Both the position numbers and the translations under genes were made by a program. A model generated the notes under the pieces. It saw only the letters and a program-made list of their open reading frames with translations. It made no database searches and was not told the DNA's origin. A stretch of 54,562 bases of DNA. It comes from Candidatus Omnitrophota bacterium. Its GTDB lineage: Bacteria > Omnitrophota > Gorgyraeia > Gygaellales > Profunditerraquicolaceae. The stretch covers positions 1 through 54,562 of the forward strand of contig JAHFFR010000004.1 of assembly GCA_023247825.1 (NCBI GenBank), written 5' to 3'. Below, piece after piece: positions 10,140-32,766 of this stretch (position 1 is the first letter of the stretch; the number at the start of each line of letters is the position of its first letter).

Positions 10140-13100
10140 TTAATCTTGAGTTTCAAACTGTGTTTTATCTGTTTTTAATGCTCCGGCTTCTTTTTCAATC
10201 GCTTTGGTTCTTTCAAAGACATCAATTGCTGCTAAACGATCTTCTTTGACCGCACGCACTGCCTGCACATGGTCTCCTGATTTTAGCGCGTAAGCATTCG
10301 TACCTGCGGCAAGCTCGGCAATAGAGACCTCATTCTCCTCGGGCCCGGCTTCTTTAGAGCGATGCGATACAACCCAATCTATGCCATGCTTTTTAGCCAT
10401 CCGGATTACTTCTAAAGTTCCCAAATAGCCTTTTTCCGGATCATCAATACCCGTGGTCAAAAATCCATTCTGATTCAACTTAATCAGGATCGCTAGATTT
10501 TTCGTAACCTTGCCTGTTTCGTCAATAAATCCTCTATCTTTCAGTAATTGAATGAATTTTTGTAACCGGCCGCCTTGAGTCACAAGAAGGTCATCCCCAA
10601 TTAGTAAGGTATCATCCCCGATTGCTCCAATGAGATTCATCCATCCTTCCCAATCGTTTTCGCCTAAACCATCTTCAATAGAATCAATCGGATATTTTTT
10701 AACCCAATCCCCGTATATTTTGACTAATTCTTCCGAAGTTATCTGGCGTCCCTCAAAATTGTAAAGGTTATTATTACCCTCAACTAACATAGAAGTAGAC
10801 GCGGCATCCAACGCCAATGCAGCAGTTCCGGCTTCTCCGGAAGTAGATGGTTCATAACCGGCATTTTGAATAGCGGCTAATAAACAATTTAGAACAAATT
10901 CATGGACACCAACATTTTGTTCTTTTAAAGCGGATATATCCAAATTTTCGATTTTGTAGCTATCCGCATGCGCATAAATGTCCACTAATTTTTCTAAAGT
11001 CAGATCCTCTATTTTATAACCGCCTTCTTTACCACGTAAACTCCCTACGCCCTTATCATCAGGGTCAGCCTTTAAACCCAAGGCCTGATAAATAAGGCCA
11101 AGTTGCCGATCTATCTCATCGCACATCTTGTTTGATTCAGCTGTAGTTTTACCTCTAGCAACAATCATAAATTCCTGCATATCTAAGCTATTGTCAGCGT
11201 GCGCACCACCGTTGGTGATATTATATTGTATCTTAGTAACCGGCACACCTTTAGAGGCAAGATCAGGAGCGAGTTCACGAATGAACTCATAAGGCTGCAA
11301 ACCTTTTTGACTGGCTGCTGCCCAAGCTGCGGCCATCTGAAAAGACAACGTGGCTTCTGCGCCTAATTGGTCTTTACCCATACTCAACATAAGTTGTCCA
11401 ATTTCAACTAATTGATCAGCCCTTAAGCCTTTCTTAGTTACTTCATTTTGAATTTTAACTAAATTCTCAAGAGCCTTTTCGACGCCGACAGTCTTTGCTT
11501 CGTCCTCGCCGGTAGAGGTTCCTGCCGGAACCACAAAATGGCCTTTTGCTCCGCCAGTTAATTCAACATCCAACCTGACTGTAGGAGAACCTAAGGCAGT
11601 AGTTTGAGAAGGAATGATTTTAGCAATGCTTAATGCTTCTTTCTTGCCCACTGCAGTATTTGACAACTTAGAATGTACCCTTGCTGACTCTTTTAATGCC
11701 GCAATAGCAGGACAATCTTCGCCTATCGGGCAGGTTAATGCATCAAGGAATGAGCCGCCATCGGTATACTGGGTGAATTTTCCTTCAACACCCGCTTTCT
11801 TATTGGCTTTTTGGCTATCAGATCCAACAGATACTTTTTCTGCCGCTAATTTCGCTAATCTTTGCTGGAATTCGTTACTACCTTCAGCAAGAAGATCATT
11901 CAGATCAAACGGCCCGACAGGCCCTGATTGTAAGACCAATTTAACGCTCCCGTCTCCAAGGATGTTGAATATTTCCGTAAGCGCTTGGCCATCGAGGTCG
12001 CCAATCACATAACCCTCAGGAATATTCCCGTCCTGAATAGTTAAAATATCCTCTTTTTTTGCCGTCTTTAAATCTTTCACTACCTTTAGAGCCTTGGGAT
12101 AATATATTTCAATGCCTTTAGCTTTTGCTGCCTGGACTACTTCTTTCCACATCTCCAGAGCGTCTTTTTTAATTTCCATTTTTCCGGTAGTTTTTCCTTC
12201 TGCGGCTAAAGGATAGGCGTTAATTGCTCCGGCAACAATTACTTTATCACCTTTAAGCAACACGTTGTTTATCGCGTTCAAAAGCAGTTCTATTTTATCT
12301 TTCTTTAAGCCGGAAACAACAAATGCCGCTGCGCCTTTTTTATGCGCTTCCTCAATTAATGCCCTGACTTTATTAACTCGGCCCACAAATTCAGCTACGT
12401 TTGGCCCGGTAGCTAAAAGTATATATTTACCCGCCGCGGTGATTCGCGCATCAAAACGATGCACGTCTGCGGTGCCAAAATTAAAACCGGTAGGACCAAC
12501 CAGTAACTCCTGCCCGCCGCGATAAAGCATATCTTTTATCGCCGCTTCACGTAATACAGGATCAGCCGTTGGATTTTCACCGGCTGGGTCGCCGGCTTGC
12601 TCGCGTATATCCATTCTGCGATTTTCGGCTATTGCCCAATCACCTGGTTTTAAGTCCTTGATTATTTGGGCGTCCCGAATAATACTTGCTTCATCGGTAT
12701 CCGGTAAGAACCATACTTTGACATCTCCTTTACCCCGGTAATTCTTAATAATCCAATAGCTGGCTTCAATAAACCTTCCATTGGCGTCTTTTTGACCGAT
12801 ATATTCTTCTATACCCTGGCCGTAAACTTGTGCCCTCTGAAAAGCATACCATTTTGCAATACCAAACAAGCCTAGTTTTTCTACATACTTACCCGCAGGC
12901 CTTCCATTATGCCCAAGAATATAAAGCGCATTATTTTTAGAAAGCCTTTCCAGATTATCATAACCTTCAATCAATTTCTTATCCTGCTTATCTGAAACCT
13001 TTTCCCCTTCAATATCACCAACATCCGTGTTTAAAGTAGCATAAACCGGTTTACCGTCAGGAGACTTGAAATCTTCTAATCCTTTATTGGTATACGTAAT

Positions 13101-16100
13101 CACTCCGGCTATAGCGGGTACTTCTGCCTCTTTAGATTCTTTGGCTTTTACGCGTGCGCTCTTAAGCGGAAGCGTGGATTCAATTGCCTGGGAGATTTCG
13201 GCTAACTGCATAACATCATTTACCAACCTTGTTGAAGCTTCTCTCTCATACAAACCGGTAAGCGCGTGGATACCGTTCATATTATTAGGTATAACTATAG
13301 ATTCCTGCGGAACCGCCATCGTAATTTTAACATCTCCGCTGGGTAAGTCTAAAACCTGAACTATCGGTGTAAAAGGATGAATAACCGAAAGTTTATTAAA
13401 TAAAATATCCAGCAGGAGCGTAGCGTCAAATTTATCTTTCTTAAAATCCACTAAAGCTATCCTTGACTCCTCGCTTAAAAATTTCTTCACGGTTTCGGCT
13501 GTTAATCTTTTATCCGTCTTTTTATCAAAACCGCTGATCCACATTTCTGTAATATGGAATTTTGTCAAATGAGTATTACTTGCGTCTGTGGTTAAGGAAG
13601 GTTTATTCTTAGCTCCCTTTCTGAATGCATTGATAATTTCAGAATACGCTTCCCGTCCTTCCAAATAATCTTCAGCGTGATGATAACCTGTCTCTACGGC
13701 AGTGCCATCAGGAGATAATTTGCCTTTTTGACCGGGATCGTTTGCTCTCCGGCCCGTGGTTACCCTTACCACTAAATCCTTACTATTAGCGGTTACCCTA
13801 TCCAAAATAAAACCTTGTCCGGTAGTATTACACGAAGGAAAGAAAAGGCTATTTACTCCTCCCATTATTTTCGAATAAGGAACTTTTAACACATTAAGCG
13901 TGCCGCTGTCAAAAAATTTATTGGCAATCTTAGGATCTTCCGCGCCTTCATACATTATTTTAATGTTTGGATATTTACTATAAATATATTTTGTATTATA
14001 GGCAGCTACCGTTATTTCTTCTTTTGTCTGGGGATCCTCTGTCTCTCCATCGGTAGCATCGGTAATTAAATCTACTTCTCCGCTTTTTAATAGATCTTCC
14101 AGTATACCTTCTGTCCCAACTTTTGCTTTATCAAAAGCCTTTTTATCATCCGGGCTCAATAAATAAAGAGGGATACCAAGGCTTTGGGCGTAGCCGGCTT
14201 TTTCATTGGCAGAACGGTTTACCGTCACAACATTAAATCCCAGCTCGCGGGACTTCTTTGCCACATCGCTGCCAATCGTGCCAAATCCGAATATTAAATG
14301 GGTATATTTTGGCTGGACAATAGCTGACCATCCCCGGGCTGATTTGTTTTTGCTCTTCTTAAAAGTTAACAGTGTCGGCCTGGCACCTTTCTGGGCTAAA
14401 CCGGATTTGAATTCAAATTGGAAAAATTCATCTTTGAGAAGCCCAGTGCCCATCCATCGTTTTATACCAATTAAATTTCCTAAAACAAAATTCTCTTCTA
14501 CGACATTGGGGCTATTTGGCCCTGTCTTTGCCGTAGGGCCTTTTCTGCTTAAGAAAGATTTCAATTTCAATTCTTCACCAGCAACGGTAATTAGCTCTAA
14601 ACCTTTTCCGGTCTTTGTAGTTAATATAGAAGTATATTCCAGTAAGTTAGCATAATATTCATCTTGCATTAGCGAATTATCTTTTAATTCTGCCGAAGGA
14701 ATAGTTATTAATGTCTGGTCGTTAGCATTTTCTTTGGCCAAGGCAAAAATTCTATCGCCTTTCTTTAAGAAAAGATAAGTGTCGCCTTCTTTAGTTTTTT
14801 CTTTGAAAAACTCTTCTAATTTATTATTAGAAACCAAAATATCTTTAGTATATCCAGAGCCCACCTCTTCAGCGGCTTTTGCAACTGTTGTGCCCAAAGA
14901 ATCCGGCGAGAATGTTGACGATGCCCCTGATTGGGTTAACTGCGCCATCCTCGATTTTACAACCGGAACCTGCGGCGTAGAAATAACAATCCGAACTTTG
15001 CTTAAATCTGTACTTTTAAATATTTTTTCGAACTCGGCTAGCGGCTTTAAACCAGTTTCCTGATCTTCGGCTTTCCAGTTCATCCCGATAGTCAGAACTT
15101 TACCCCTCTTTTGGCCCTGTTTTATCGCTTCCTTAATAACTTTACCAATTACCTCGGGATCTTTAGCCGCGCCTCCGATTAAACCGCCATCGAATATGGC
15201 CAGCATTTCCTCCGCGTTTTTAGCATTCAGGCTTCCGCCATAATCTAAATCTAAAACCAGATTATTTTGGAAAATACCGGACGAAGTATCTTTAATAAAC
15301 TTTTTCACATCTTTATTTTCTTGAGCAGAAGGAGTTAAACCGGTGTTAATCGCCCAACGCGGCTCATAAGCTATTCTTAAGCCAATCAGATCAGCATCTT
15401 CTTTTGTTATACCATCTAATATTTGAGTTAAATCCTCGGCCAGTATTTTCTTGGTATTTTCAGACAAATACTTGTCGTAAACTTCTTTTCCTTTTTCCCC
15501 TTTAAAAGTTCTATCCAGAAGATACTGCGCTTTCGTTTCTCCGACACAAAGAACAGTTTGCTTAATCGGGTAACCCTTTGCCTTACTGCGGGCGATTAAA
15601 TCTTTCAACTGCACATTTACAATCTTATTGACGAGGCTACGGGCTAATAATTCAATTTCTTTATCCTGATAATCATCAATCTCATTAACAATTGAATAAA
15701 TTTTTTCCAGATAGGACAAAACTTTATTCTTCTCGTTTTCAGGCAACTTTAACACATCCAGATTTGCCGCTACTTTCAGAGAACTAATGAAATTATTCTG
15801 TATTTTATCTTTTATTGCTTTTGCTTCTTCCTCTTTTTTGGTTAAATAAACAATCCCGGAATCACGCAATATGCTTTTCAGCAAATTTGACATTGACAGT
15901 TCCAGCCGCGCTCGCGGCTCGGAATGGTTATACAACGCGCCGTCAGCTTTATTGAGCATGGCATGCCCAATATTATGGGCGCCGGTATTTGCTCCGTTAA
16001 AAAGCGTGACTTCATTGTCCAACACTAAAATTTGAGGAACTAAGCTAACAGCGGCAGGAATTATTCGTGCCGGAATTGTAGCCGGAGCGGGTTTAACTGG

Positions 16101-17255
16101 AGCAGAAACCGGCGCAGCAGCAACGGCATCATTTAAAACCAGCACGTTACGAGCCTGAACTTCTACCGGAGCCAACTCTTTGAAAGCAGAGGCAAAAACG
16201 GGCCCAAAACCTTTTCCCTGCGTTAATTTTAAAAATGAGCTAAGTGTTTTGGCTTTGACTGCGTCACGAATAAGGCCGTACATAGGCACCTTATTGTCGA
16301 GCCCAATTTCAGAGATGCTCTCAATAGGAGTATTCAGTTTTAAAACAGCGGATGTACCGGCATAGCTGGGATTAGGGCGAAAGATAATTTTTCCATTTTC
16401 TTCTTCAATTAAATATGCATAGCCGTGTTTTTCTTCAATCTTAGCAAAAATAGGTTTGACCTTTGCTGAACCGGGAATACTATTTTTACCCCCCACATCA
16501 TTAGAAATCCAATTAGCCATAACTAAGTAAGTATTCCCTACATTAACTGTGCGGTGGGAATAGCCGGGAAGCAAAACAACCTTATCGCCTGCTTTGGCAA
16601 AAGTAGCTATAACCTCTAATTTACCTTCTTCATTTTTATTTATACTCTGCTGAACATATAGTGCCTCTCCATACATAACTTCATAAATCTCAGGATACGT
16701 ATCGCCTTGGGTTGATACCGGATGTTCATGGCCTTGAGTAGCGTTCAATTGTTTTCCAAAAGATTTTCCCGGAGGCAAAACCGTAATATCATACCTTAGC
16801 CCCAATTCATTTATTTTAGCTTCATCAGCCTTATTGAAAACATCGCGGAATCCGAAATATTGTTTTTGCGGATCGCTAAGAGTATTAATTGAATTTTCGG
16901 GAACAAAACTTATAGCTATATTTTTCTCGTTATAGACTTTTGTCCATTTACCTTCGCTTTTGAATCCTGATGGGAAAGTAAGCTTTCCGGTTTTTTGATT
17001 TATCTGTAAATCAAAACCAGCCCTCTTACTAAAATTAACTAGTTCGCCAAGCACTTCTACTTCGCTTGCATTTTCTAATTCTGCGCTAATTTTTTTAACG
17101 CTATCATCACGTTTTCCATCTGTTGCCGCCGATCTACGCAATTTATCCGAATTAGCATAGCTTCTCACCGGAACGCTTGTAATAATAAAACTTACCGCTA
17201 TAATCCCGGAAATGAGTTTCGAAAATAATGTTTTCTTGGGAAACTGTATAAACAT
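10140..17255 (-). CDS. Signal-peptide-bearing five-enzyme fusion: cupin PGI - permuted TIM - unknown - class II GAPDH - PGK - enolase (2,371 aa)
   Basis: Signal MFIQFPKKTLFSKLISGIIAVSFIITSVPVRSYA, then catalytic motifs of each enzyme in series; SD TAGGAGGAAGG. Confidence 0.92.
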   Translation of the reverse strand: MFIQFPKKTLFSKLISGIIAVSFIITSVPVRSYANSDKLRRSAATDGKRDDSVKKISAELENASEVEVLGELVNFSKRAGFDLQINQKTGKLTFPSGFKSEGKWTKVYNEKNIAISFVPENSINTLSDPQKQYFGFRDVFNKADEAKINELGLRYDITVLPPGKSFGKQLNATQGHEHPVSTQGDTYPEIYEVMYGEALYVQQSINKNEEGKLEVIATFAKAGDKVVLLPGYSHRTVNVGNTYLVMANWISNDVGGKNSIPGSAKVKPIFAKIEEKHGYAYLIEEENGKIIFRPNPSYAGTSAVLKLNTPIESISEIGLDNKVPMYGLIRDAVKAKTLSSFLKLTQGKGFGPVFASAFKELAPVEVQARNVLVLNDAVAAAPVSAPVKPAPATIPARIIPAAVSLVPQILVLDNEVTLFNGANTGAHNIGHAMLNKADGALYNHSEPRARLELSMSNLLKSILRDSGIVYLTKKEEEAKAIKDKIQNNFISSLKVAANLDVLKLPENEKNKVLSYLEKIYSIVNEIDDYQDKEIELLARSLVNKIVNVQLKDLIARSKAKGYPIKQTVLCVGETKAQYLLDRTFKGEKGKEVYDKYLSENTKKILAEDLTQILDGITKEDADLIGLRIAYEPRWAINTGLTPSAQENKDVKKFIKDTSSGIFQNNLVLDLDYGGSLNAKNAEEMLAIFDGGLIGGAAKDPEVIGKVIKEAIKQGQKRGKVLTIGMNWKAEDQETGLKPLAEFEKIFKSTDLSKVRIVISTPQVPVVKSRMAQLTQSGASSTFSPDSLGTTVAKAAEEVGSGYTKDILVSNNKLEEFFKEKTKEGDTYLFLKKGDRIFALAKENANDQTLITIPSAELKDNSLMQDEYYANLLEYTSILTTKTGKGLELITVAGEELKLKSFLSRKGPTAKTGPNSPNVVEENFVLGNLIGIKRWMGTGLLKDEFFQFEFKSGLAQKGARPTLLTFKKSKNKSARGWSAIVQPKYTHLIFGFGTIGSDVAKKSRELGFNVVTVNRSANEKAGYAQSLGIPLYLLSPDDKKAFDKAKVGTEGILEDLLKSGEVDLITDATDGETEDPQTKEEITVAAYNTKYIYSKYPNIKIMYEGAEDPKIANKFFDSGTLNVLKVPYSKIMGGVNSLFFPSCNTTGQGFILDRVTANSKDLVVRVTTGRRANDPGQKGKLSPDGTAVETGYHHAEDYLEGREAYSEIINAFRKGAKNKPSLTTDASNTHLTKFHITEMWISGFDKKTDKRLTAETVKKFLSEESRIALVDFKKDKFDATLLLDILFNKLSVIHPFTPIVQVLDLPSGDVKITMAVPQESIVIPNNMNGIHALTGLYEREASTRLVNDVMQLAEISQAIESTLPLKSARVKAKESKEAEVPAIAGVITYTNKGLEDFKSPDGKPVYATLNTDVGDIEGEKVSDKQDKKLIEGYDNLERLSKNNALYILGHNGRPAGKYVEKLGLFGIAKWYAFQRAQVYGQGIEEYIGQKDANGRFIEASYWIIKNYRGKGDVKVWFLPDTDEASIIRDAQIIKDLKPGDWAIAENRRMDIREQAGDPAGENPTADPVLREAAIKDMLYRGGQELLVGPTGFNFGTADVHRFDARITAAGKYILLATGPNVAEFVGRVNKVRALIEEAHKKGAAAFVVSGLKKDKIELLLNAINNVLLKGDKVIVAGAINAYPLAAEGKTTGKMEIKKDALEMWKEVVQAAKAKGIEIYYPKALKVVKDLKTAKKEDILTIQDGNIPEGYVIGDLDGQALTEIFNILGDGSVKLVLQSGPVGPFDLNDLLAEGSNEFQQRLAKLAAEKVSVGSDSQKANKKAGVEGKFTQYTDGGSFLDALTCPIGEDCPAIAALKESARVHSKLSNTAVGKKEALSIAKIIPSQTTALGSPTVRLDVELTGGAKGHFVVPAGTSTGEDEAKTVGVEKALENLVKIQNEVTKKGLRADQLVEIGQLMLSMGKDQLGAEATLSFQMAAAWAAASQKGLQPYEFIRELAPDLASKGVPVTKIQYNITNGGAHADNSLDMQEFMIVARGKTTAESNKMCDEIDRQLGLIYQALGLKADPDDKGVGSLRGKEGGYKIEDLTLEKLVDIYAHADSYKIENLDISALKEQNVGVHEFVLNCLLAAIQNAGYEPSTSGEAGTAALALDAASTSMLVEGNNNLYNFEGRQITSEELVKIYGDWVKKYPIDSIEDGLGENDWEGWMNLIGAIGDDTLLIGDDLLVTQGGRLQKFIQLLKDRGFIDETGKVTKNLAILIKLNQNGFLTTGIDDPEKGYLGTLEVIRMAKKHGIDWVVSHRSKEAGPEENEVSIAELAAGTNAYALKSGDHVQAVRAVKEDRLAAIDVFERTKAIEKEAGALKTDKTQFETQD
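10200..11640 (-). other. eno: Enolase domain
   Basis: GSPTV, VPAGTSTG, NGGAHADN, QEFMI, KEGGY, LDAAS, SIEDG, GDDL, LIKLNQ, SHRS, LKSG; all catalytic and metal residues are recognisable. Confidence 0.93.
11690..13050 (-). other. pgk: Phosphoglycerate kinase domain (divergent)
   Basis: LNTDV, GHNGRP, ENRRM, FGTADVHR, SGLKKDK, SGPVGPFD, GSDS, TDGGSFL are colinear with PGK motifs but several are substituted. Confidence 0.82.
13190..14310 (-). other. gap: Class II (archaeal-type) phosphorylating GAPDH domain
   Basis: GFGTIG, LITDAT, YEGAE, catalytic SCNTT, RRANDP, HH, QESIVIPNN: the class II signature rather than class I. Confidence 0.88.
14950..16040 (-). other. tpiA: Triosephosphate isomerase domain, circularly permuted, with a helical insertion
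   Basis: GANTG, HSE, VLCVGET, IAYEPRWAINTG, YGGS, LIGGA, followed by the normally N-terminal GMNWK segment. Confidence 0.88.
16350..16900 (-). other. pgi: Cupin-type (archaeal-type) glucose-6-phosphate isomerase domain
   Basis: TQGHEH...YPEIYEV.YGEA...LPGYSHRTVNVG...NPSY; metal ligands H-x-H, E and H are present. Confidence 0.85.
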
Positions 17256-17286: not shown

Positions 17287-20200
17287 CTACCCGCTGATGC
17301 CTACGGCTTCAAGGGCTATTTCGTATTTTTCCTGCAATTGGGCTACTTCCTCAATCGCCTTTATCGATGGAATCACGGATATCTGCCCACTTAAATCAAG
17401 AAGTTGATTATATTTATTTTTATCGGCAATCTGCATAGTTTGTTGTTCGATAAAATCATTATATCTTTCCACCACCGTGGATTCCTTCTGAAAAATACGC
17501 GCAGTTGCTTTAGCAAAAACAATGGACATTGGATTAATTTTGGCTTCTCCATTCTTTATGGTTTCTTCAGTTACATTTGGCGCATCTACGGTCACTGCTC
17601 TTAAACCGGGGTTTAACCCAACCGCTTTAGATACCTCATCTTGCAGTTCTATCTTAGAAGTTATTATCATAATCCGGTCAAAACCAATCCCGTATCCGGT
17701 GTTTAATTTCTCCAACGCGGCATCAACTCCTATTATGATAATATCTGCCAAGTTCCCAAGGCGTATAATTTTGTCCAATTCAGATTTATCTTTTGCGTAC
17801 ACTGCGATTTTAAATTCAGGATTTACCCCTTTCCATTCTTTAAGCGCAGCAATGCTTCCTGCATTTTCAATAATTACACCTGCTTTTATAAGCAAGGCGC
17901 CTTTACCGCCTTCATCTTTATCTTTTAAATCTTTTACTGCTCCCACCACATCAGCATAACCTGTCCCGAAGTTATTATGGGACTTAGTATCCGCATAAAA
18001 AACTTTGTTAAATGCATAAACATTTTGTATTGTATTTGTTGGATTTTCAGTTAAATAAAGGGTTACGCCATATTCTGCAGCGGCAGTTTTAGTTACCGGG
18101 ATAGTTACAGCAGCTAAAGATTTATCCACGTCTTTATCGGTAATCAGTTCCGCGTTTATATTATCCCATTCTGTGCCTCTTTTTGCCTCAGCTAACTCCC
18201 TTTTTGCTTCCCTATCTAAAAGCAGAAAACTAACTCCTCTTTCTTTAGCGAGATAATAATCGTAAGCGAAAATATTATTGGGGCTATTAATAACCATTCC
18301 CAAAGGAAGGCCCGTTATCCCCAATTCATTCAGAAGAGAACGCGTATCATCGATTTCAGATGGCTCGCGTACCTTGGATAAAGCAAGCGCGATATTATCA
18401 AAGCCTTCATCTCTCAATTCCTTAATCGCCTCTAACTCCCACAGAAAGATATTCTTATCGGGATTAAGCACCTTTTTCATTCCGCGATTGCCTAAATCAG
18501 GGTTTGGCTCTTTGGGTAATTCGTATCTTTCTCCGCCTAATTTAAGCTTAAGATAATCACCGGGTTCTTTAGAGGTTTCAATAATAAACTTCTCGCCTCT
18601 GGCTCTTGCTTCTGAAGCCTGCTGCCTCCAGTATTTCTTTAAAGATGCAACATAGAATTTTTTTCCTGCGTCAACTTGGCTGATATCTGCGCCTACACCC
18701 TCCAAATAACCCTCAACTGTTTTTCTTAAGGCAATACTCGATAGATTGTATTCCGCATCTTTTATTTCCTTGTTAATCCCCTGGATTTTAGTTGCTATCG
18801 CATCCAGTCCCTTTTCTATCTCTTCGCCATCCGTCTTTGATTGTTCCTTAAGCTGGTCAAATTCTGCTTTATATTGTTTATTTTGTGCCTTTAACTTGGC
18901 AATCTTTTCATAAAGGCTATTTTCTGAATCAGTAACAAACAAATCGCCTTTTGATCCCTTATCATATTCAGCAAAAAGCTGATAATGAAACGGGAGCTGT
19001 AAATGAAACGCCGAAATTGAACCCTTAGCAAAAGCTGTCTTAATATCCGGCTTGGCACCGGGATTTATTTGCTTGTATATCTCAAAGTCCCTGTTATCCA
19101 GAACCAATTTCAGGAAAGGAAGCATATCCACCAGATTTTTAGGCAGCCCCTCCTGTTTAGATTTATCGGCTATCAATTCATACAGGCTATTAACCAATGC
19201 TTCCTTATTCTCCGGCTCATTTAGTAATCCTGATTCATCGTGGCCAAGAAGATGGTTGAGCAACGTATAAAGATCATTGGTAGTCCTGTCTATGCTCGGG
19301 ATAGTAATAGAAGCAGAATCATACCCCAACAGATAAAGCACCAACGCTCCGGCTGGGTCAACTGCCGGCCAGTTACCGCAAAAACCAATAGTAAATGGCT
19401 TAAGCCCTTTGGGAATTCTTACTTCCTGGTTATACCTTTTAATCGTATTAACCAAACTAATCAGGGCGCGTATACTCTGGATGCTGCGTTCGCTGATGCT
19501 ATTAAAATATACCGCGGCATTTTGTCTATCTACTTCAAAGTTAAACTGGGTCAAATCATTGGAACCAACCGAACCAAAATCTATACCTGCCTCCAAAAGA
19601 TCCCATAATTCCACGGATTGAGGTGTTTCAATCATACTTCCACGCAGGATACGGTCTGAGGTCAAACCGGACTCATCGCAAATTTTATTCATTTGCTCTA
19701 CATGTCCAGCATCATAAACCATCGGCGCAAAAATCCCTATCCTGAATTTTCCCGGTCCAATAGGATTACCGTTTTCATCGCGGCGCGCCCCTAAATCCAC
19801 TACTTTTTTTATTGCCTTCAACTGCATACGTGTGACTTTAGGATTATCCACAAAGCTGTTAATTCCCCGATAGCCAGCCATCGAGTTTCTGCTTTTCTTT
19901 TTCGCGGAACCGGGAATCTTATCATATTCATCATCTTTAAGGTCATCTAAACGGAACAAGAATACTCCGTAAAAATGCCGCCTGATCATATCAGTAACTT
20001 TAATATCTTTTTTAGAAACTTTATCTTTATAAGATTTAATTAGCTCTTCTGTCTTCTTAAGAAGCTCGTTGGTGGATAGGGCGCCTTCTGCCTCATCAAA
20101 TGTCTGTTTATACGCATCGGCAATATCCAACAAGTTCTTTCTTAATTCGACATCCTGAATACTCTGTGCCAATTCAAGTATCTCTAACGGCTCTACTACC

Positions 20201-23920: not shown

Positions 23921-26900
23921 TTAAATTGCAATACCAGCTGTTGTAATTTCAGTTTTGTATCTGTTAACGGAAGCTTCAACTTCAGTTACGGATTGACCTG
24001 CTCCTACATGGAAATTACCAGTTGTCGTGTCCTTAGAGAAAAGCCCATCCAACTTATTCACATCTTCATTGGATACTTCTTTACCCTCTTCAGCCGCAGG
24101 AATAAGTTCTAAACCCAGCTTTAAAGCTTTGGCCACTGATATTGCATCCGACGTCCCGGCATCTTTAGCCGAGTCAATGGCTATGCGCGTTACCATTTTA
24201 CCTTCAAACTGATTAACATACTCCTCGGGACCAATTACCTGATAAATAGCCGTATTAAGTTTTTCTCTAACTTGATTGGCTATTATCTCCGGATTGGTTC
24301 CCACCACAACTGCCGCAAACATATCTCGTTTTATTTCAGCGTAACCTCCATTTATCTTATTTATCTTCTCTAAATCCGCAGCCACTGCCTGCTCTACTTC
24401 TTCCGGCTTTATATCATCGCGATTAATATGCAGGACTATTTTTATATTTCCCTGCCCAAGCTGCTCGGAGATATTCTGCAAAGCCATAATACCAGCAGGG
24501 CTATTTTTAAGCAAAGTTTCATGATCCACGAGAATAGTATAAACTTTACCGTCTTTAGCTTTGTTTATTTCTAACCCCTTAGCTGATATCCCGAAATTGA
24601 TATCTGCAGGAAACGACTTTGCAATAGGCGCTAAATCCTTACCCCAAGTTAACTCTTGAGCCACCGCAAGCATTGCCCTTCCTTTATTCGCCGTAACCTT
24701 TTTTCCAATTTCAATAAATTCAGCATCTACAGCTTTTTGCTTCGCAATTTCTATATTATCTTCACTTACATAATTTTCCCATCGATCTTTAAGTCTTTTT
24801 TCAATTATTTCTGGGCCCTTTTGATACTCTATTTCAGTTGCTGGCAATCTCAATCCTCCCTCACCAAACCCTTCTTCCAGCTGTCTTAAAGCTGCTGCAG
24901 CTCGCCGATCTTGAATATACCTGATTGCGGGATTAGCGGCCATTAAATCATAAAAACCCTCTAATCTTCCATTATTCAAATTAAAACTCCACATTGACAG
25001 AAGAGGAGGCCCATCATAAATACCAATCTTTGCATCAGTTAATGCTACTGGAAAGAAAGGGCCTTTATTAGAACCCCTCATCCAGCCAGGAACCATATAT
25101 TCTCCCTTTAAAAATGCAGAAGTAATTTCTCCTACAGCAGGAAATTTTTTCTGCGACCTCATCATAAACATTGGATCATCTTTTCCTACATATTCTCCGG
25201 CTATTTTACCTAAACGCTGAGCTGTAACCGCAGCCATTTCTTCTTCGCCTACTTTGATAAGATCATAGGTGTACCTATCCGGTTCCCCACCAAACCAATA
25301 AGCATCAGCATAATCGTTGTTTTTTAACCAAATATGCCTGCCAGCACTATTGTTATGATCAAAATCCAGCATACCAGCATTTATATCTACTGAATTTCCG
25401 GGACCCAGCGGACGCCAGGTAGTATCTGGGCCAAAAATAATATTCCAGATACCTTTATTAAACGCGCCCGGAGCGGTTTTATCTGCTTGAGTAAAAATCA
25501 CCACTTCGGCTGCTTGTTCTCTTATCACCATTTCCGCAACACTGGGACCGGCGCCTTTTACATTACCTGAAAACGCATCCGCTAAAAGATCCTGGCCGGC
25601 TCCATAAAAACCATGGTCCTTAGCGACAACTGCTCCCTGCACAAAACCATCCCAGATATTTTGGTGAATATATTCATTATCTTTACCCTTATCATGAGTA
25701 ATTGTTACCGATATATCATCTCCAACTCTAGTGATAAAGAAGTCCACTATCTCGCCTCTTTCCGCGGCTTTCATCCATTTTTCCGCGACAGCCTCAAGCA
25801 TAATCCCAGGCGCGGTTCCATGCCCGCCAGAAGAACCTACATCCGCTTTAGCAATAGTTATAGTAAGCAGCTGCCCTTTCGGCACTCCCGGATGAATTTT
25901 ACTGGAACCTTTAATAGCAAAAGTATCTTTTTTACCCAAGTCGTTGATAAGACGGAATTTCTCTATTTTCACTTTATCGTTACTTGCGATAACAGAGCCT
26001 TCCTCGGTAACTTCAGTTATAACATTATTGAAGTTTTTATTAATCTTATCGTTTATCTTGCTAAGCTTAGCAGATACGTCTTTAGCTACGTCAACATGCT
26101 TGCCCCGCGCCATATCCATAAACTCATGCAGCATCATCTCCTGATACAAGGCGACACCCTCATCACCCTCTTCTTCAAAACTATTTATTCTAGCTAAAGA
26201 AGAATAAATAGTCCTTGCCCCACCCTCGATATTTTTGCTTCCCTCATAGGCAAAGGTGCCGACGTGCGCGATCAATGTTCTATGTTCGCTGGATAAAATA
26301 TCGCCTACACTAGAAAGAGAAGGATCTAACCCTTTTTCGCCAAAAAGAAATGTAACAAATCTTGTATCATTAACTATGGCTTTTCTTGCTTCTTTAGTTC
26401 TTTCGCTAGCATCTTTAATTGCCGCAATAGCTTTAATCTTCTTTAGGAAAGCTGTCGCGGTTTTTTTAGCTGATTTTCCCTCTATAGCTTTCTGGACTCC
26501 GTTTTCATCGATTTTAGATATTTCAGACACTACTTTATTAATAAAATCATCGGTAAAAACTTTATTATCCAAAAAGCTGCGGGCAGAAAAAAGCTTCTGG
26601 CTTATCTCGCCTTTCAGAATATCAATCTCTCCGCTTTTTTGAATAAATTCAGATGCGCTCTTATCCAAATCATTTACAGCATTATGCCCGAATATCTCTA
26701 CTGCCCTGCCTTCAACAAAAGCTTTTGCTGCCTTTACTTTAAAGATTTTATCATGCGCCAAAACCTTTCCCGGCTCACTTAAAAATCCGGAGCTAAACAT
26801 GCTTGCTAAATCACCATCTCGAGCAGTTGCGCTTTGTGTTCTTAAAGTATCGGTGTTATTTACCGAATCGACTTTAGTTGAAGCAAAACCCGCGGTTATC

Positions 26901-28800: not shown

Positions 28801-31800
28801 TTATATAAACTTATTTATAAAATTAGCCACTAAATCAGCGTCGGCTTTGGTTGCCTCGGATACCCCCTGAACAGGCTCTATATCCGGCAAATCAAGTCCC
28901 AAAAACACCTGACTATAAGTATTTTTATAGGTCTCTTTAGAAATAATCCCCTGGCGCTCCATATTTCCATAAAATTCTTTGAACCTATCTAAAATAATTC
29001 CGCTGTAAGATCTCCCTTCTGAATTTGCGCCTGCAAGAACTTGCATCGCCTTGGCAAGCGCAACAATACTGATCGTCTTATCTGAAAATCCCACTTGTTT
29101 AACTTTTAAATCTATCTTTTCTCCTGCCGGCTTCAGTATCACAACATTCTCTTGAAGATTAACCTGCCGATTTTCTAATTCTGACTTTAATTCGCCTGCT
29201 GTTTTTACTGCAATAATGTTGCTGTTTTCGCTAAACAAAGCCCTTATCTTATCCGCGCCTTCTCCATAAATATCAAGCATAATACGTACGCCATGGCGTG
29301 GCTGCAATCTAATAATCGCGTTCAATGCGTCTATGGCGCCGGGCTTCTTAAAAAAGCTTGAATGAACAACTAAAGCTAATTTTAAATCTTCAAGGCGGAA
29401 TGTTTTAGAATACAAAACTTCAAACTGCCCCCATATATCGTCAAGATATCCGGGCAATAGTGCCTCTGCGCCTACGGCTTTAAAGAATCTGCTGTTAGCA
29501 TTTAAGAAATTTTTTAACTTTTCTGCATTGCCATCATCAAAGCCTATTTTAACAGGTATGCCTTCCCCATTAACCCATAGCCTGTAAGCTGGTTTAAAAC
29601 GCTCCTGCCAGAGTTTTCCTGCTTTTTCACGGGAAGAAACTGCTTCTTTTAACAATTTTCCTGCTTCGGTTCCTTCCTTTTGAGCAGCTAATTTCTCTTT
29701 TTTGTCTGCATCTTGGTCGCGGTTAACTGCGTCCCTATCCATAGCAAAATTCCTGCCCACAACTCCGGCAAGCTGGATGTTACCTGAATTAAGTTCCTTT
29801 ATCTTATCTTCAATCTGTTTTAAATAATGGATCCCGTTTTCATCGGGTATGCGCGTCATCACATCCCGGCCATCAAGTATCGGCCAGATATTGACTTTAA
29901 TATCGCTGCCTAAATTCATTTGTTTTGCCATTTCCATTAATGCCAGAAAATATCTATTATCGGAATGGATGCCGCCGCTGGAATAAAGCCCCATTATGTG
30001 GATATTATGGTTTCCCTGTCTGGCCAATTCAAATACCTGGCGTAAAACCGGATTTTCAAAAAAAGTTTTATCATTAATTTTATCTATAATCTGTTTATAA
30101 AGCGTAGGCGGATTGTAACCTGTCCCGATGACACGGTGTCCATTGTCTGAATCTCCCATTTGATAATCCGGAAGCCCAACCGCATCTCCATGAGCCTTAA
30201 GAGCTGTAAAAGGACAGTTCGTAAGAAGATCCAAGTAAACCGGCGGCTTGGCTAATTCAATACCGTTATATTCATTTGCCTCAGGGTTATTATATTTATT
30301 CACCCCCCAGCCATCGCGGATCACTACAACTACCGGCCCTTGAATATCCTGATATTTATAATCTTCCAATAAACTTTCACTCATTTCTTCAGGCTTAGGA
30401 ATGCCTAATATTTCTAATAAAGTTGCGGCTATATTAGAAAGCCCCTTGCCCTTTTTTAATTTTATATCCTTTCCCAATCCATCAACTATAAAATTAACCG
30501 GATTAGTAGTGTGCTGATCAAAAGGGATTACACCATATTTATCAGATAAAGGCATGCCTTTCTCGTCTAAGGTTACCAACTGCTCAATATTGCCATGGTC
30601 TGATATTTCAATATAAACACCTTTCTGACGCAGAGTTTCCTCGCGAATTCTTCCAGCTTCCTTATCCGCGGCTAAAACCGTCTTCTTGGCCCGCTCCCGG
30701 TCAACCTTGATATTATGCCCCTGGATATCCACAGGCAAATTAACAACGACCATTTTCTTTTTGGGCGTTTCTTTAATTTCATCCAGATAATTAATTACAT
30801 TATCAGTTATCTCTGCATATTTCATTTGCGGAGCTTTCTTATTATCTTCAACGCTTTCGGAAGGAACAATTGATACCTTTATGCCCAAAGCCGCATAATC
30901 CAGGTTTCTCTGTCCGGCAAAGAAATAGGTAACGTGCTGGCCCTTATCCGATTCTGTAAAATAACCTTGAATCACGCCTGCATCTTTCAAAACTTCTATG
31001 ATACTTTTATACTTAGGCAAAGTAAACTCGGAAGTAAATGCGGCTTGAATTCCGTAAGCTTTAAAATGCTTCTCATCGTAAGTAGTAAAAGGTACAAAAG
31101 TGAGCCCTAAATCATCGATACCAAAACGATTACCATGCCGGTTGAAATTCGGATCCGTAAAAGCAATCATTGCTCCTAATGAACGGTCGGTCCGATGATT
31201 CGTCCAGATAACTATATCGCCTTTCTTTATTTTACCTACGGGCTCGCCTTTAGGATCAGTTACTATCAAAGGGGGCACATAATAATCATCCATACTTGCC
31301 CCACTTTTCGTGTAAATTTTTTCCAACTGCTCAAAAATTGTAGGCAGAGGTTCCTTCGCTTTTAATTGAATAAATCCGATAGACCTGCCTTCAGGAGGAT
31401 AAAAAACTCTTTCTCCAGTGACTATATCCTCATCATTAAACTTGAAATCAACAAATTTTTCTTTTAAATCTTCTTGGGAAAAATAATGGACAAGTTTTTC
31501 ATCTCTTACAAAAGTATTTTTTTCTATCTTTTCGCCTTTGCCATAGGTTTTGTCGTTCACTGATTGAGCAATGAAATATATGCGGCCGCCTGGTTTTAAA
31601 ACTCGGTATATTTCCTTAATAGCCCTAGCAATGTCGACATCTTTCATAAAATTTAAGCTTAAGTGACTGTAAACCACATCAAAGGATTCATCTGAAAAAG
31701 CAAAAGTTTTGGTAAGATCTTGAACCTTGGTTGTCAAATTTTTTATATTTTCTTTATTAATTTTACCACTTAATTCACTAATTGCAGATTCAACAAAATC

Positions 31801-32172
31801 TGTAGCAATTACGGTATGCCCGGCTTTTGCAAAAGATTCTTCGTCTAATCCTGCTCCACAACCTAGAGAAAGAATCGTTGATCCCGGTATCATATCTTCG
31901 AGTACTTCTTTAGCAAATTGGTGTATTTCTATCTGTTTAGCTTTTCTGGCATCTTTTAAATCTTTCTTCCAGACTAAATGTTGATCAATTAACTCTTCCG
32001 AAATCTCTTTTACTCTTCCATCTTCTTTTGTTGCCGCCTCTCTCCTTAAATTATCCGAAACGAATATACCGGCATAACTCCTTATCGGAACGCCGGTAAA
32101 AATAAAACTGGTTAAAGCAACGCCGGAAATGAATTTTACGAATTGAGTTTTTTTAGGAAATCGTGTGTACAT
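28801..32172 (-). CDS. gpmI: Signal-peptide-bearing fusion: class I SAM methyltransferase - circularly permuted 2,3-BPG-independent phosphoglycerate mutase - shared C-terminal domain (1,123 aa)
   Basis: Start reassigned to ATG 32172 (SD GAGGAG; leader homologous to the other fusions). MTase SLGCGAG, FDVV, RVLKPGG; iPGM NHRTDR, ESDKGQHVT, DIQGH, SDHGN, HTTNPV, then RDGWG, GDSDNGH, GGIHS, DGRD, GRNFAMDRD. Confidence 0.9.
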   Translation of the reverse strand: MYTRFPKKTQFVKFISGVALTSFIFTGVPIRSYAGIFVSDNLRREAATKEDGRVKEISEELIDQHLVWKKDLKDARKAKQIEIHQFAKEVLEDMIPGSTILSLGCGAGLDEESFAKAGHTVIATDFVESAISELSGKINKENIKNLTTKVQDLTKTFAFSDESFDVVYSHLSLNFMKDVDIARAIKEIYRVLKPGGRIYFIAQSVNDKTYGKGEKIEKNTFVRDEKLVHYFSQEDLKEKFVDFKFNDEDIVTGERVFYPPEGRSIGFIQLKAKEPLPTIFEQLEKIYTKSGASMDDYYVPPLIVTDPKGEPVGKIKKGDIVIWTNHRTDRSLGAMIAFTDPNFNRHGNRFGIDDLGLTFVPFTTYDEKHFKAYGIQAAFTSEFTLPKYKSIIEVLKDAGVIQGYFTESDKGQHVTYFFAGQRNLDYAALGIKVSIVPSESVEDNKKAPQMKYAEITDNVINYLDEIKETPKKKMVVVNLPVDIQGHNIKVDRERAKKTVLAADKEAGRIREETLRQKGVYIEISDHGNIEQLVTLDEKGMPLSDKYGVIPFDQHTTNPVNFIVDGLGKDIKLKKGKGLSNIAATLLEILGIPKPEEMSESLLEDYKYQDIQGPVVVVIRDGWGVNKYNNPEANEYNGIELAKPPVYLDLLTNCPFTALKAHGDAVGLPDYQMGDSDNGHRVIGTGYNPPTLYKQIIDKINDKTFFENPVLRQVFELARQGNHNIHIMGLYSSGGIHSDNRYFLALMEMAKQMNLGSDIKVNIWPILDGRDVMTRIPDENGIHYLKQIEDKIKELNSGNIQLAGVVGRNFAMDRDAVNRDQDADKKEKLAAQKEGTEAGKLLKEAVSSREKAGKLWQERFKPAYRLWVNGEGIPVKIGFDDGNAEKLKNFLNANSRFFKAVGAEALLPGYLDDIWGQFEVLYSKTFRLEDLKLALVVHSSFFKKPGAIDALNAIIRLQPRHGVRIMLDIYGEGADKIRALFSENSNIIAVKTAGELKSELENRQVNLQENVVILKPAGEKIDLKVKQVGFSDKTISIVALAKAMQVLAGANSEGRSYSGIILDRFKEFYGNMERQGIISKETYKNTYSQVFLGLDLPDIEPVQGVSEATKADADLVANFINKFI

Positions 32173-32421: not shown

Positions 32422-32766
32422 CTATGAATTTAAAGGAATGTTCCGCAGCTTATTGCTCGCCCTTAAAAGCCGCGAAATACCCATTAAATCCGGCCGCTCC
32501 AAATGAATACCGGCTTTGTATTTATTGGAGTCCATCGTCTTTGACCAGACAACTTCTCCCTTGGCATATAGAAGATCGCTATTGTCGGGCATCTTAAACC
32601 ACATCTCCAAAGAATTACGCGGCTGCAGCTCCTCGCTGGTGACTACACCTATGCCGTTTGCGCTGACATCAAAGGTTGTTGCCTCTCCCTCCTTGTTTTC
32701 TTCGCGGTTAAGAAACCTCATTGGGAACTCTACCACAAACCTGGTGAACATCCTGCGGTCATCCAT
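32422..32766 (-). CDS. Standalone PilZ-domain protein, paralog of 2735-3043
   Basis: DRRMFTRF (RxxxR), DVSANG (DxSxxG), GEVVW, shared C-terminal LERxDLMGISRLLRA; SD AAAGGAGGGG. Confidence 0.88.
   Translation of the reverse strand: MDDRRMFTRFVVEFPMRFLNREENKEGEATTFDVSANGIGVVTSEELQPRNSLEMWFKMPDNSDLLYAKGEVVWSKTMDSNKYKAGIHLERPDLMGISRLLRASNKLRNIPLNS

Follow-up and report, generated by a model that had tools for sequence, protein, structure and literature searches.

We report a circularly permuted cofactor-independent phosphoglycerate mutase (iPGM), hereafter cp-iPGM, in a stretch of DNA of 54,562 nucleotides from a Candidatus Omnitrophota bacterium (GenBank assembly GCA_023247825.1, contig JAHFFR010000004.1, labelled C64 here), which is referred to below as the window. 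The enzyme is one module of a 1123-residue protein encoded on the minus strand (28801..32172), which also comprises a leader, an S-adenosylmethionine (SAM)-dependent methyltransferase domain and a shared C-terminal tail. We place a probability of about 0.7 on the reading that cp-iPGM is an active mutase of 3-phosphoglycerate and 2-phosphoglycerate (3PG/2PG), that it belongs to an older permuted lineage and that it is one cargo of a leader-cargo-tail protein encoded in an accessory gene cluster; its mutase activity, substrate, export and site of action are in each case predicted, and the permutation, the conservation of residues, the confident fold and the conserved gene neighbourhood are observed. 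Unless stated otherwise, residue numbers refer to P0001, the 1148-residue translation that begins at an upstream TTG; subtraction of 25 gives the number in P0002, the 1123-residue protein, which is already present in identical form on a database record.

The permuted order is evident from both profile and pairwise comparisons. The NCBIfam iPGM profile TIGR01307 has a single significant place in the genome, where it matches in two pieces of swapped order: window positions 30370-31329, which come first in the protein, correspond to profile positions 216-503 (E-value 1.8e-35) and window positions 29695-30336 to profile positions 2-202 (E-value 2.1e-46), E-values that exclude chance as the source of both matches. 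Similarly, phmmer aligns residues 305-624 with residues 214-505 of the Geobacillus stearothermophilus enzyme (PDB identifier 1EJJ) and residues 638-840 with residues 5-193 of the same structure. The Pfam families iPGM_N (PF06415; 134.5 bits, cut-off 27) and Metalloenzyme (PF01676; 98.6 bits, cut-off 24.3) are both recognized. The original prediction, made from the letters of the sequence, had placed the C-terminal half of an iPGM (~31290-30370) ahead of its N-terminal half (~30336-29560) and had proposed domain order in profile searches as a check; the TIGR01307 and phmmer matches are both swapped with respect to the canonical order, as predicted, and the coordinates hold to within a few codons.

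The first segment of the module (30376..31344, minus strand, as are all features of this gene; residues 302-624, canonical ~214-505) comprises the second half of the transferase domain and the C-terminal part of the phosphatase domain, and carries R352, R355, K435, D507, H511, D550, H551 and H579. A 13-residue linker, SLLEDYKYQDIQG (30337..30375), connects the two ancestral termini, C-terminus first; it is kept in homologues and is modelled with a predicted local distance difference test (pLDDT) score of 88-94. The second segment (29728..30336; residues 638-840, canonical 5-193) comprises the N-terminal part of the phosphatase domain and the first half of the transferase domain, with D645, the nucleophile S700, H704, H761, R794, D795, R832 and R838. 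It is followed, after the MDRD motif (836-839), by the charged insertion noticed in the original prediction, which spans 38 residues (29614..29727; residues 841-878), is predicted to form an arm of helical hairpin, and varies in length among the aligned homologues from none in P0009-P0011 to ~130 residues in P0008. The module ends with the helix LWQERFKPAYRLWVNGEG (29560..29613; residues 879-896), which provides the new C-terminus at the cut point and is the counterpart of RWDRVEKAYRAMVYGEG at canonical residues 194-212 (1EJJ numbering). The arrangement is a clean circular permutation, which runs from canonical residue ~214 to 505, through the linker, and then from residue 5 on to 212. The cut falls in a helix-loop-helix on the transferase-domain surface, at a point that lies between positions ~212 and 214 in the numbering of the Geobacillus enzyme. 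Since the chain is opened there and the old termini are joined, the phosphatase domain becomes one uninterrupted stretch enclosed by the transferase domain, whereas in canonical iPGMs it is the transferase domain that is enclosed; the hinges between the two domains are both retained.

For the active site, 1EJJ numbering was rebuilt from the phmmer alignment and 96 re-ordered sequences were aligned and compared at 16 positions, which we take to be the metal ligands, the nucleophile and the substrate contacts of the enzyme (D12, S62, H66, H123, R153, D154, R185, R191, R261, R264, K336, D403, H407, D444, H445 and H462). All 16 residues are present in the window protein, in agreement with the earlier statement that every metal and catalytic residue is recognizable. 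The nucleophile Ser62 and the two-metal site formed by D12, D403, H407, D444, H445 and H462 correspond to S700, D645, D507, H511, D550, H551 and H579 of P0001, respectively, and the binding residues H66, H123, R153, D154, R185, R191, R261, R264 and K336 to H704, H761, R794, D795, R832, R838, R352, R355 and K435. The same 16 residues are found in 17 of the 17 representatives of the Omnitrophota permuted clade described below, the exceptions being three gaps at D12 in N-terminally truncated alignments.

An AlphaFold2 model of the 615-residue module (P0012), computed from a 10-sequence alignment, has a mean pLDDT of 85.8 and a predicted template modelling (pTM) score of 0.82, with the insertion region folded as a helical hairpin (helices 544-562 and 565-599 of P0012). 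Foldseek searches of the PDB with E-value below 0.001 returned 21 matches, all of them iPGMs with a probability of 1.00, and the structure prediction suggested as a check on the permutation thus yields a confident iPGM fold. Each match covers only ~300 columns, about half of the chain, with a template modelling (TM) score of ~0.4, because the aligner is dependent on sequence order and the protein is permuted.

The source is a contig of a metagenome-assembled genome (MAG), for which swapped fragments, a chimeric contig, an error of gene calling or a decaying pseudogene have to be considered; that the two halves might be assembly-swapped fragments had been raised with the original prediction itself. 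We regard the probability of such an artefact as negligible. The module lies in a single open frame of 3.4 kb without stops, its catalytic residues are invariant and its fold is predicted with confidence. Moreover, the order, an identical junction linker and the catalytic residues recur in nine homologues of 900-1790 residues and 42-78% identity, taken from independent NCBI, ENA, JGI and Logan assemblies, and this agreement rules out an assembly artefact.

A HMMER search of 1.84 billion representative sequences gave 4572 matches, of which the top 150 were mapped with the split N- and C-terminal parts of a canonical iPGM. About 28 representative clusters among these 150 are permuted, and they include Omnitrophota megaproteins of up to 7967 residues as well as stand-alone, leaderless proteins of 506-602 residues (P0017, P0022, P0023, P0024, P0077, P0083, P0115 and P0151). 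The stand-alone enzymes have both of their ends at the same cut point and close with ...AMDRD.RWDRV.KAY.ALV.GEG (...W..R...AY...V.GEG), and the boundaries of the window module match those of P0017, P0022, P0023, P0083, P0115, P0151 and L023. Thus the survey of homologues called for by the original prediction finds the same permutation point both in the nine homologues and in the stand-alone enzymes. No tandem-duplication intermediate was found among the top 150 representatives. Proteins of the P0083 type are abundant in Aminicenantes MAGs (more than 120 clusters at >=66% identity), where they carry database names such as 'alkaline phosphatase family protein' or iPGM; the gene neighbours of the Aminicenantes stand-alone enzyme examined, peptidases and ABC transporters, are uninformative. 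The P0151 cluster contains a protein from a Pseudomonadota MAG, and a stand-alone gene of the P0115 type is present in the cultured gut Firmicute Butyricicoccus pullicaecorum ET57 (L023 3001-4527, JAFBIW010000009.1), where the pocket is changed from the canonical LDGRD to FDGRS. A scan of genome contigs with the permuted alignment returned mostly canonical iPGMs, because the conserved motifs are common to both orders; only its top matches are informative and L023 alone was verified.

The relationships among these sequences were examined in an unrooted tree of the re-ordered halves (96 rows, LG+G4), of which 33 rows are permuted. Two permuted clades are well supported, one made up of 17 Omnitrophota modules (support 100) and the other of 10 sequences of the Aminicenantes type (support 98), and the six further permuted sequences are unplaced on the backbone. 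A free quick tree implies four changes of order, of which the well-supported branches force only one. When all 33 permuted rows are constrained to one clade, the likelihood is above that of the free quick search and the arrangement is not rejected by the approximately unbiased (AU) test (p-AU 0.987). A single old origin of all permuted forms would be compatible with the data, although an unrooted tree cannot prove it. The cut point shared with stand-alone enzymes, together with the AU result, suggests that the permutation most likely predates the fusions and was not invented in this gene cluster.

It had been proposed that the iPGM was permuted independently in this cluster and that selection on the placement of termini or on folding in exported fusions was responsible, and one could accordingly suppose that the permutation arose in exported fusions and was kept since the moved termini help export, folding or packing, in parallel with the triosephosphate isomerase (TIM) of the adjacent gene, which also shows a permuted motif order. 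Such a history fits the observations that each of the 17 Omnitrophota representatives of the permuted clade is part of a protein of more than 900 residues, and that after permutation the two connections lie next to each other on the transferase domain, whereas the canonical N-terminus is seven residues ahead of the metal ligand D12. It is nevertheless very unlikely, as leaderless stand-alone enzymes of other phyla are cut at the same point, a common origin of the permuted forms as a whole is not rejected, and iPGMs of canonical order are embedded in giant Omnitrophota proteins as well. Of 200 sampled genomes of other Omnitrophota species, 20 have an iPGM; five of these are permuted, all in open reading frames (ORFs) of 1224-4355 residues, and 15 are of canonical order, one of which lies inside an ORF of 44,145 residues (G091:C1:359753-361369, L013). 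A further iPGM of canonical order is found within P0146, an Omnitrophota protein of 3482 residues. Embedding in a giant protein therefore does not require permutation. Neither the independent origin nor the selective explanation is upheld by these results, and a permutation specific to exported fusions is ruled out by the existence of permuted enzymes that stand alone, together with the AU result.

The N-terminus of the 1123-residue protein (32071..32172; P0002 1-34) is, as judged from its sequence, a signal peptide or signal anchor of the Sec type, with Lys7, Lys8 and Lys13, a hydrophobic core at residues 14-29 and then SYA|G. Homologous leaders are found by tblastn on fusions of 2371 and 2154 residues in the window and, by alignment, on the homologues P0003-P0007. 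The motif D-x-L-R-x-x-A-A (here DNLRREAA, 32032..32055), which follows the leader, is likewise common to the window fusions and P0003-P0007. At the other end lies a tail domain of ~235 residues (28804..29505) with an alpha/beta fold, which occurs also at 17290-18069 and 23924-24703; it is clearly shared with other cp-iPGM fusions and weakly (18-24% identity) with the window fusions that contain PpsA/PPDK or fructose-1,6-bisphosphate (FBP) enzymes. The AlphaFold2 model of the tail is of good quality (pLDDT 86.3, pTM 0.88), and there is no convincing relative in sequence or fold in the PDB, where the best Foldseek match has an E-value of 5e-3 and a TM score below 0.3 and a profile search gave a weak CheY-like match only (E-value 0.007). 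Cysteine makes up 0.18% of the cp-iPGM fusion and 0.10-0.25% of the leader-bearing fusions in general (window 3307-32172), where the median for the genome is 1.15%; a neighbouring polyprotein-like ORF of 7166 residues, at 0.71%, is not depleted. The Omnitrophota permuted modules themselves contain 0.19% cysteine, compared with 0.81% in canonical iPGMs and an ordinary 0.61% in the stand-alone permuted enzymes. The features by which we recognize a leader-cargo-tail protein, namely a Sec-type leader followed by the conserved motif, a C-terminal tail in common with other fusions and a low cysteine content, are thus all present, and the protein is probably exported.

The window, which represents the whole contig, consists of a row of giant genes on the minus strand. 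One of them encodes a leader-bearing five-enzyme fusion of 2371 residues (10140-17255), which contains, in order, a cupin-type phosphoglucose isomerase (PGI; 131-256), TIM (~408-765), an archaeal-type glyceraldehyde-3-phosphate dehydrogenase (GAPDH)-like region with SCNTTG (~985-1350), phosphoglycerate kinase (PGK; 1529-1840) and enolase (1889-2344), and which lacks only a phosphoglycerate mutase. No phosphoglycerate mutase other than cp-iPGM is encoded in the window, and cp-iPGM supplies the only reaction that this fusion lacks between its PGK and enolase modules. PpsA/PPDK domains are present in the 2154-residue protein and an FBP aldolase/phosphatase (FBPase_3) in a protein of 1019 residues. 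The megaproteins of the cluster together are predicted to cover the route from pyruvate to glucose-6-phosphate. In the TIM region (window ~14960-16030, minus strand) the motifs of beta3-beta8 (NHSEPR, VGETK, YEPRWAINTG, YGGS, LIGGAA) precede those of beta1 (IGMNWK) and beta2. The second permutation claimed for the cluster thus looks real in its motif order, and statistical support extends only to the C-terminal half (profile positions 127-244, E-value 8e-19), the relocated beta1-beta2 piece scoring 1 bit.

In the reading that we favour, residues 277-871 of P0002 would constitute a complete and predicted competent, Mn-dependent cofactor-independent phosphoglycerate mutase in permuted order, which would interconvert 3PG and 2PG through a phospho-serine intermediate on S700 (S675 in the 1123-residue protein). 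The module would be a swappable cargo between the Sec-type leader with its DxLRxxAA motif and the shared tail domain, and the mutase would work alongside the other members of an accessory second set of gluconeogenic enzymes. The substrate pocket is unchanged, and the permuted module is fused elsewhere to PGK (P0011, P0014), phosphofructokinase (P0010) and phosphoglucomutase/phosphomannomutase (PGM/PMM; P0005), and in two independent assemblies it has TIM-PGK and enolase megaproteins as neighbours. Given the pocket and the repeated association with PGK and enolase, by fusion or by position, ordinary 3PG/2PG mutase chemistry is the best reading. A more ambitious version, in which a complete second gluconeogenic/glycolytic pathway (the cupin PGI-cpTIM-GAPDH-PGK-enolase, FBP aldolase/phosphatase, PpsA/PPDK and iPGM fusions) would be sent out of the cytoplasm by the dedicated leader, processing motif and tail, to the cell surface, the periplasm or a prey or host, and in which permuted iPGM and TIM would be favoured as cargo since their termini suit plug-in assembly, is speculative and distinctly unlikely.

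Several observations weigh against the favoured reading. The genome has a canonical GpmA (448 bits, cut-off 305; contig C50, L005 1480-2238) and, in addition, a protein of the ApgM family (contig C9, L003 655-1851), which rules out cp-iPGM as the only phosphoglycerate mutase of the genome. The ApgM-family protein scores equally for 'cofactor-independent PGM' and 'proposed homoserine kinase', and its gene lies directly upstream of one for aspartokinase, a position that favours the homoserine kinase reading. With a canonical GpmA present, cp-iPGM is not needed for housekeeping glycolysis; separate canonical genes for enolase and TIM are also found elsewhere in the genome. The partner domains of the permuted module are partly non-glycolytic (methyltransferase, GDPD, HAD and ARMT1 phosphatase). 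The total TIGR01307 score, 273.1 bits in two non-collinear stretches, is under the equivalog cut-off of 330.65, because two halves in this order cannot score as one collinear match. If the protein is truly exported, the source of its substrate and of the cofactors of its partner enzymes presents a difficulty. Furthermore, an iPGM query gave no match in five genomes of the same genus, and a query with the FBP fusion did not find that fusion in 20 other genomes of the same family. The contig differs somewhat from the rest of the genome in its fraction of guanine plus cytosine (GC; 0.387 versus 0.423) and in tetranucleotide correlation (0.959 versus a median of 0.986), and in both GC and tetranucleotide usage is among the four most deviant of the 40 contigs longer than 10 kb. 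The fusion cluster looks accessory, and the contig may have been binned in error.

Some of these points would equally suit a neofunctionalized phosphomutase or phosphatase of the iPGM fold, with a substrate other than phosphoglycerate, for example a sugar phosphate or a phosphoester derived from a lipid headgroup of the prey or host. The genome has its own GpmA, the partners of the module include a methyltransferase resembling phosphoethanolamine methyltransferases as well as GDPD, HAD and PGM/PMM domains, and other permuted sublineages, such as the Aminicenantes type, have an altered pocket in which D154 is replaced by G or S. However, the 1EJJ substrate contacts H123, R153, D154, R185, R191, R261, R264 and K336 are unchanged in 17 of 17 clade representatives, and the recurrent association with PGK and enolase argues in the same direction, so we consider such a change of substrate unlikely.

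Compared with the canonical iPGMs (GpmI/GpmM; TIGR01307; PDB identifiers 1EJJ, 1O98, 1O99, 2IFY and 5VPU), cp-iPGM has the same alkaline-phosphatase-like and transferase domains and the same 16 residues, with an identity of ~28-29% over each half in the Foldseek alignments, and the same mechanism, via a phospho-serine and two Mn ions, is expected. It differs in its rotated order, the 13-residue joint, the inverted nesting and the 38-residue helical insertion after MDRD, in the nucleophile motif, which is GDSDNGH in place of GNSEVGH, and in being embedded in a leader-bearing protein of 1123 residues. The stand-alone permuted lineage (P0083 and P0246 from Aminicenantes MAGs, NIS61405.1, MCK5535057.1 and L023) shares the cut and the linker length, with 22-24 residues between EM and DGWG, and keeps the catalytic metal ligands and the serine, as do the Omnitrophota modules; unlike the window protein, however, these enzymes of 506-602 residues have no leader, tail or partner domains. 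A large subclade of the Aminicenantes and Butyricicoccus type has changes at D154 (to G or S) and elsewhere in the pocket, whereas the window copy has a fully canonical one. Natural circular permutations are known from other enzymes, for example the GH70 glucansucrases with respect to GH13 amylases, transaldolase with respect to class I aldolases, and the motif orders of DNA methyltransferases. In these examples too, rotation of the sequence leaves fold and active site conserved; their folds and chemistry differ from those of cp-iPGM, a hinge enzyme with two domains in which the cut falls within one of them and thereby inverts the nesting. No published permuted iPGM was found in searches of the literature on circular permutation in iPGM and the alkaline phosphatase superfamily or on Omnitrophota glycolytic fusions.

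As an enzyme, iPGM is familiar from textbook glycolysis and is also a target for drugs in nematodes and trypanosomatids; its catalysis depends on a hinge motion between the phosphatase domain and the nested transferase domain. A natural and widespread lineage with inverted nesting, in which all catalytic residues are kept, offers a ready-made test of how connectivity affects domain closure, folding and stability, and Butyricicoccus pullicaecorum ET57 is a tractable cultured host of a member of the stand-alone lineage. Automated annotation misses the permutation; it assigns the name 'alkaline phosphatase family protein' or plain iPGM and gives scores under the equivalog cut-off. The window copy retains a canonical pocket among fused PGK, enolase, TIM, GAPDH, FBP aldolase/phosphatase and PpsA modules behind export-type leaders, and it fills a gap in the puzzling second complement of sugar-phosphate enzymes, or set, found in Omnitrophota; where this set acts bears on the biology of these ultra-small, possibly predatory bacteria. 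Giant proteins of Omnitrophota, termed 'Archaeovorins', have been described in which TIM, glucose-6-phosphate isomerase (GPI), FBPase, PGM/PMM, FBP aldolase (FBA) and PPDK are embedded in very long proteins with a predicted location outside the cytoplasm (West-Roberts et al. 2023, bioRxiv 10.1101/2023.11.21.568195); that report mentions neither iPGM nor any permutation. The window protein comes from the same phylum and likewise places a normally cytoplasmic sugar-phosphate enzyme in a long protein, but it is mid-sized (1123 residues) and has a defined leader-cargo-tail layout.

The reading frame that contains cp-iPGM is uninterrupted on the minus strand from 32247 to 28801, with the stop codon at 28801-28803. 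We assign the start to the ATG at 32172, which has GUGAGGAGAAAG just upstream, including a GGAGA ribosome-binding site. Between the leader and the permuted module lies a class I SAM-dependent methyltransferase domain (31438..31941; residues 103-270), matched by the Pfam families Methyltransf_11, Methyltransf_25 and Methyltransf_31 with E-values of 1e-15 to 3e-19, whose closest PDB entries are 2P8J and phosphoethanolamine N-methyltransferases. The cp-iPGM gene is adjoined by a small gene for a PilZ-domain protein (32422-32766, minus strand), and a PilZ gene (L021 12935-13630) also lies beside the cp-iPGM gene in the independent assembly GCA_041643255.1, where genes for a sugar ABC transporter, an MFS protein and a glycoside hydrolase come after it. 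The remainder of the window on this side (32962-54561, minus strand) is taken up by the ORF of more than 7199 residues that runs off the contig end, in which many unrelated modules are separated by recurrent D-G-G junctions in a polyprotein-like arrangement.

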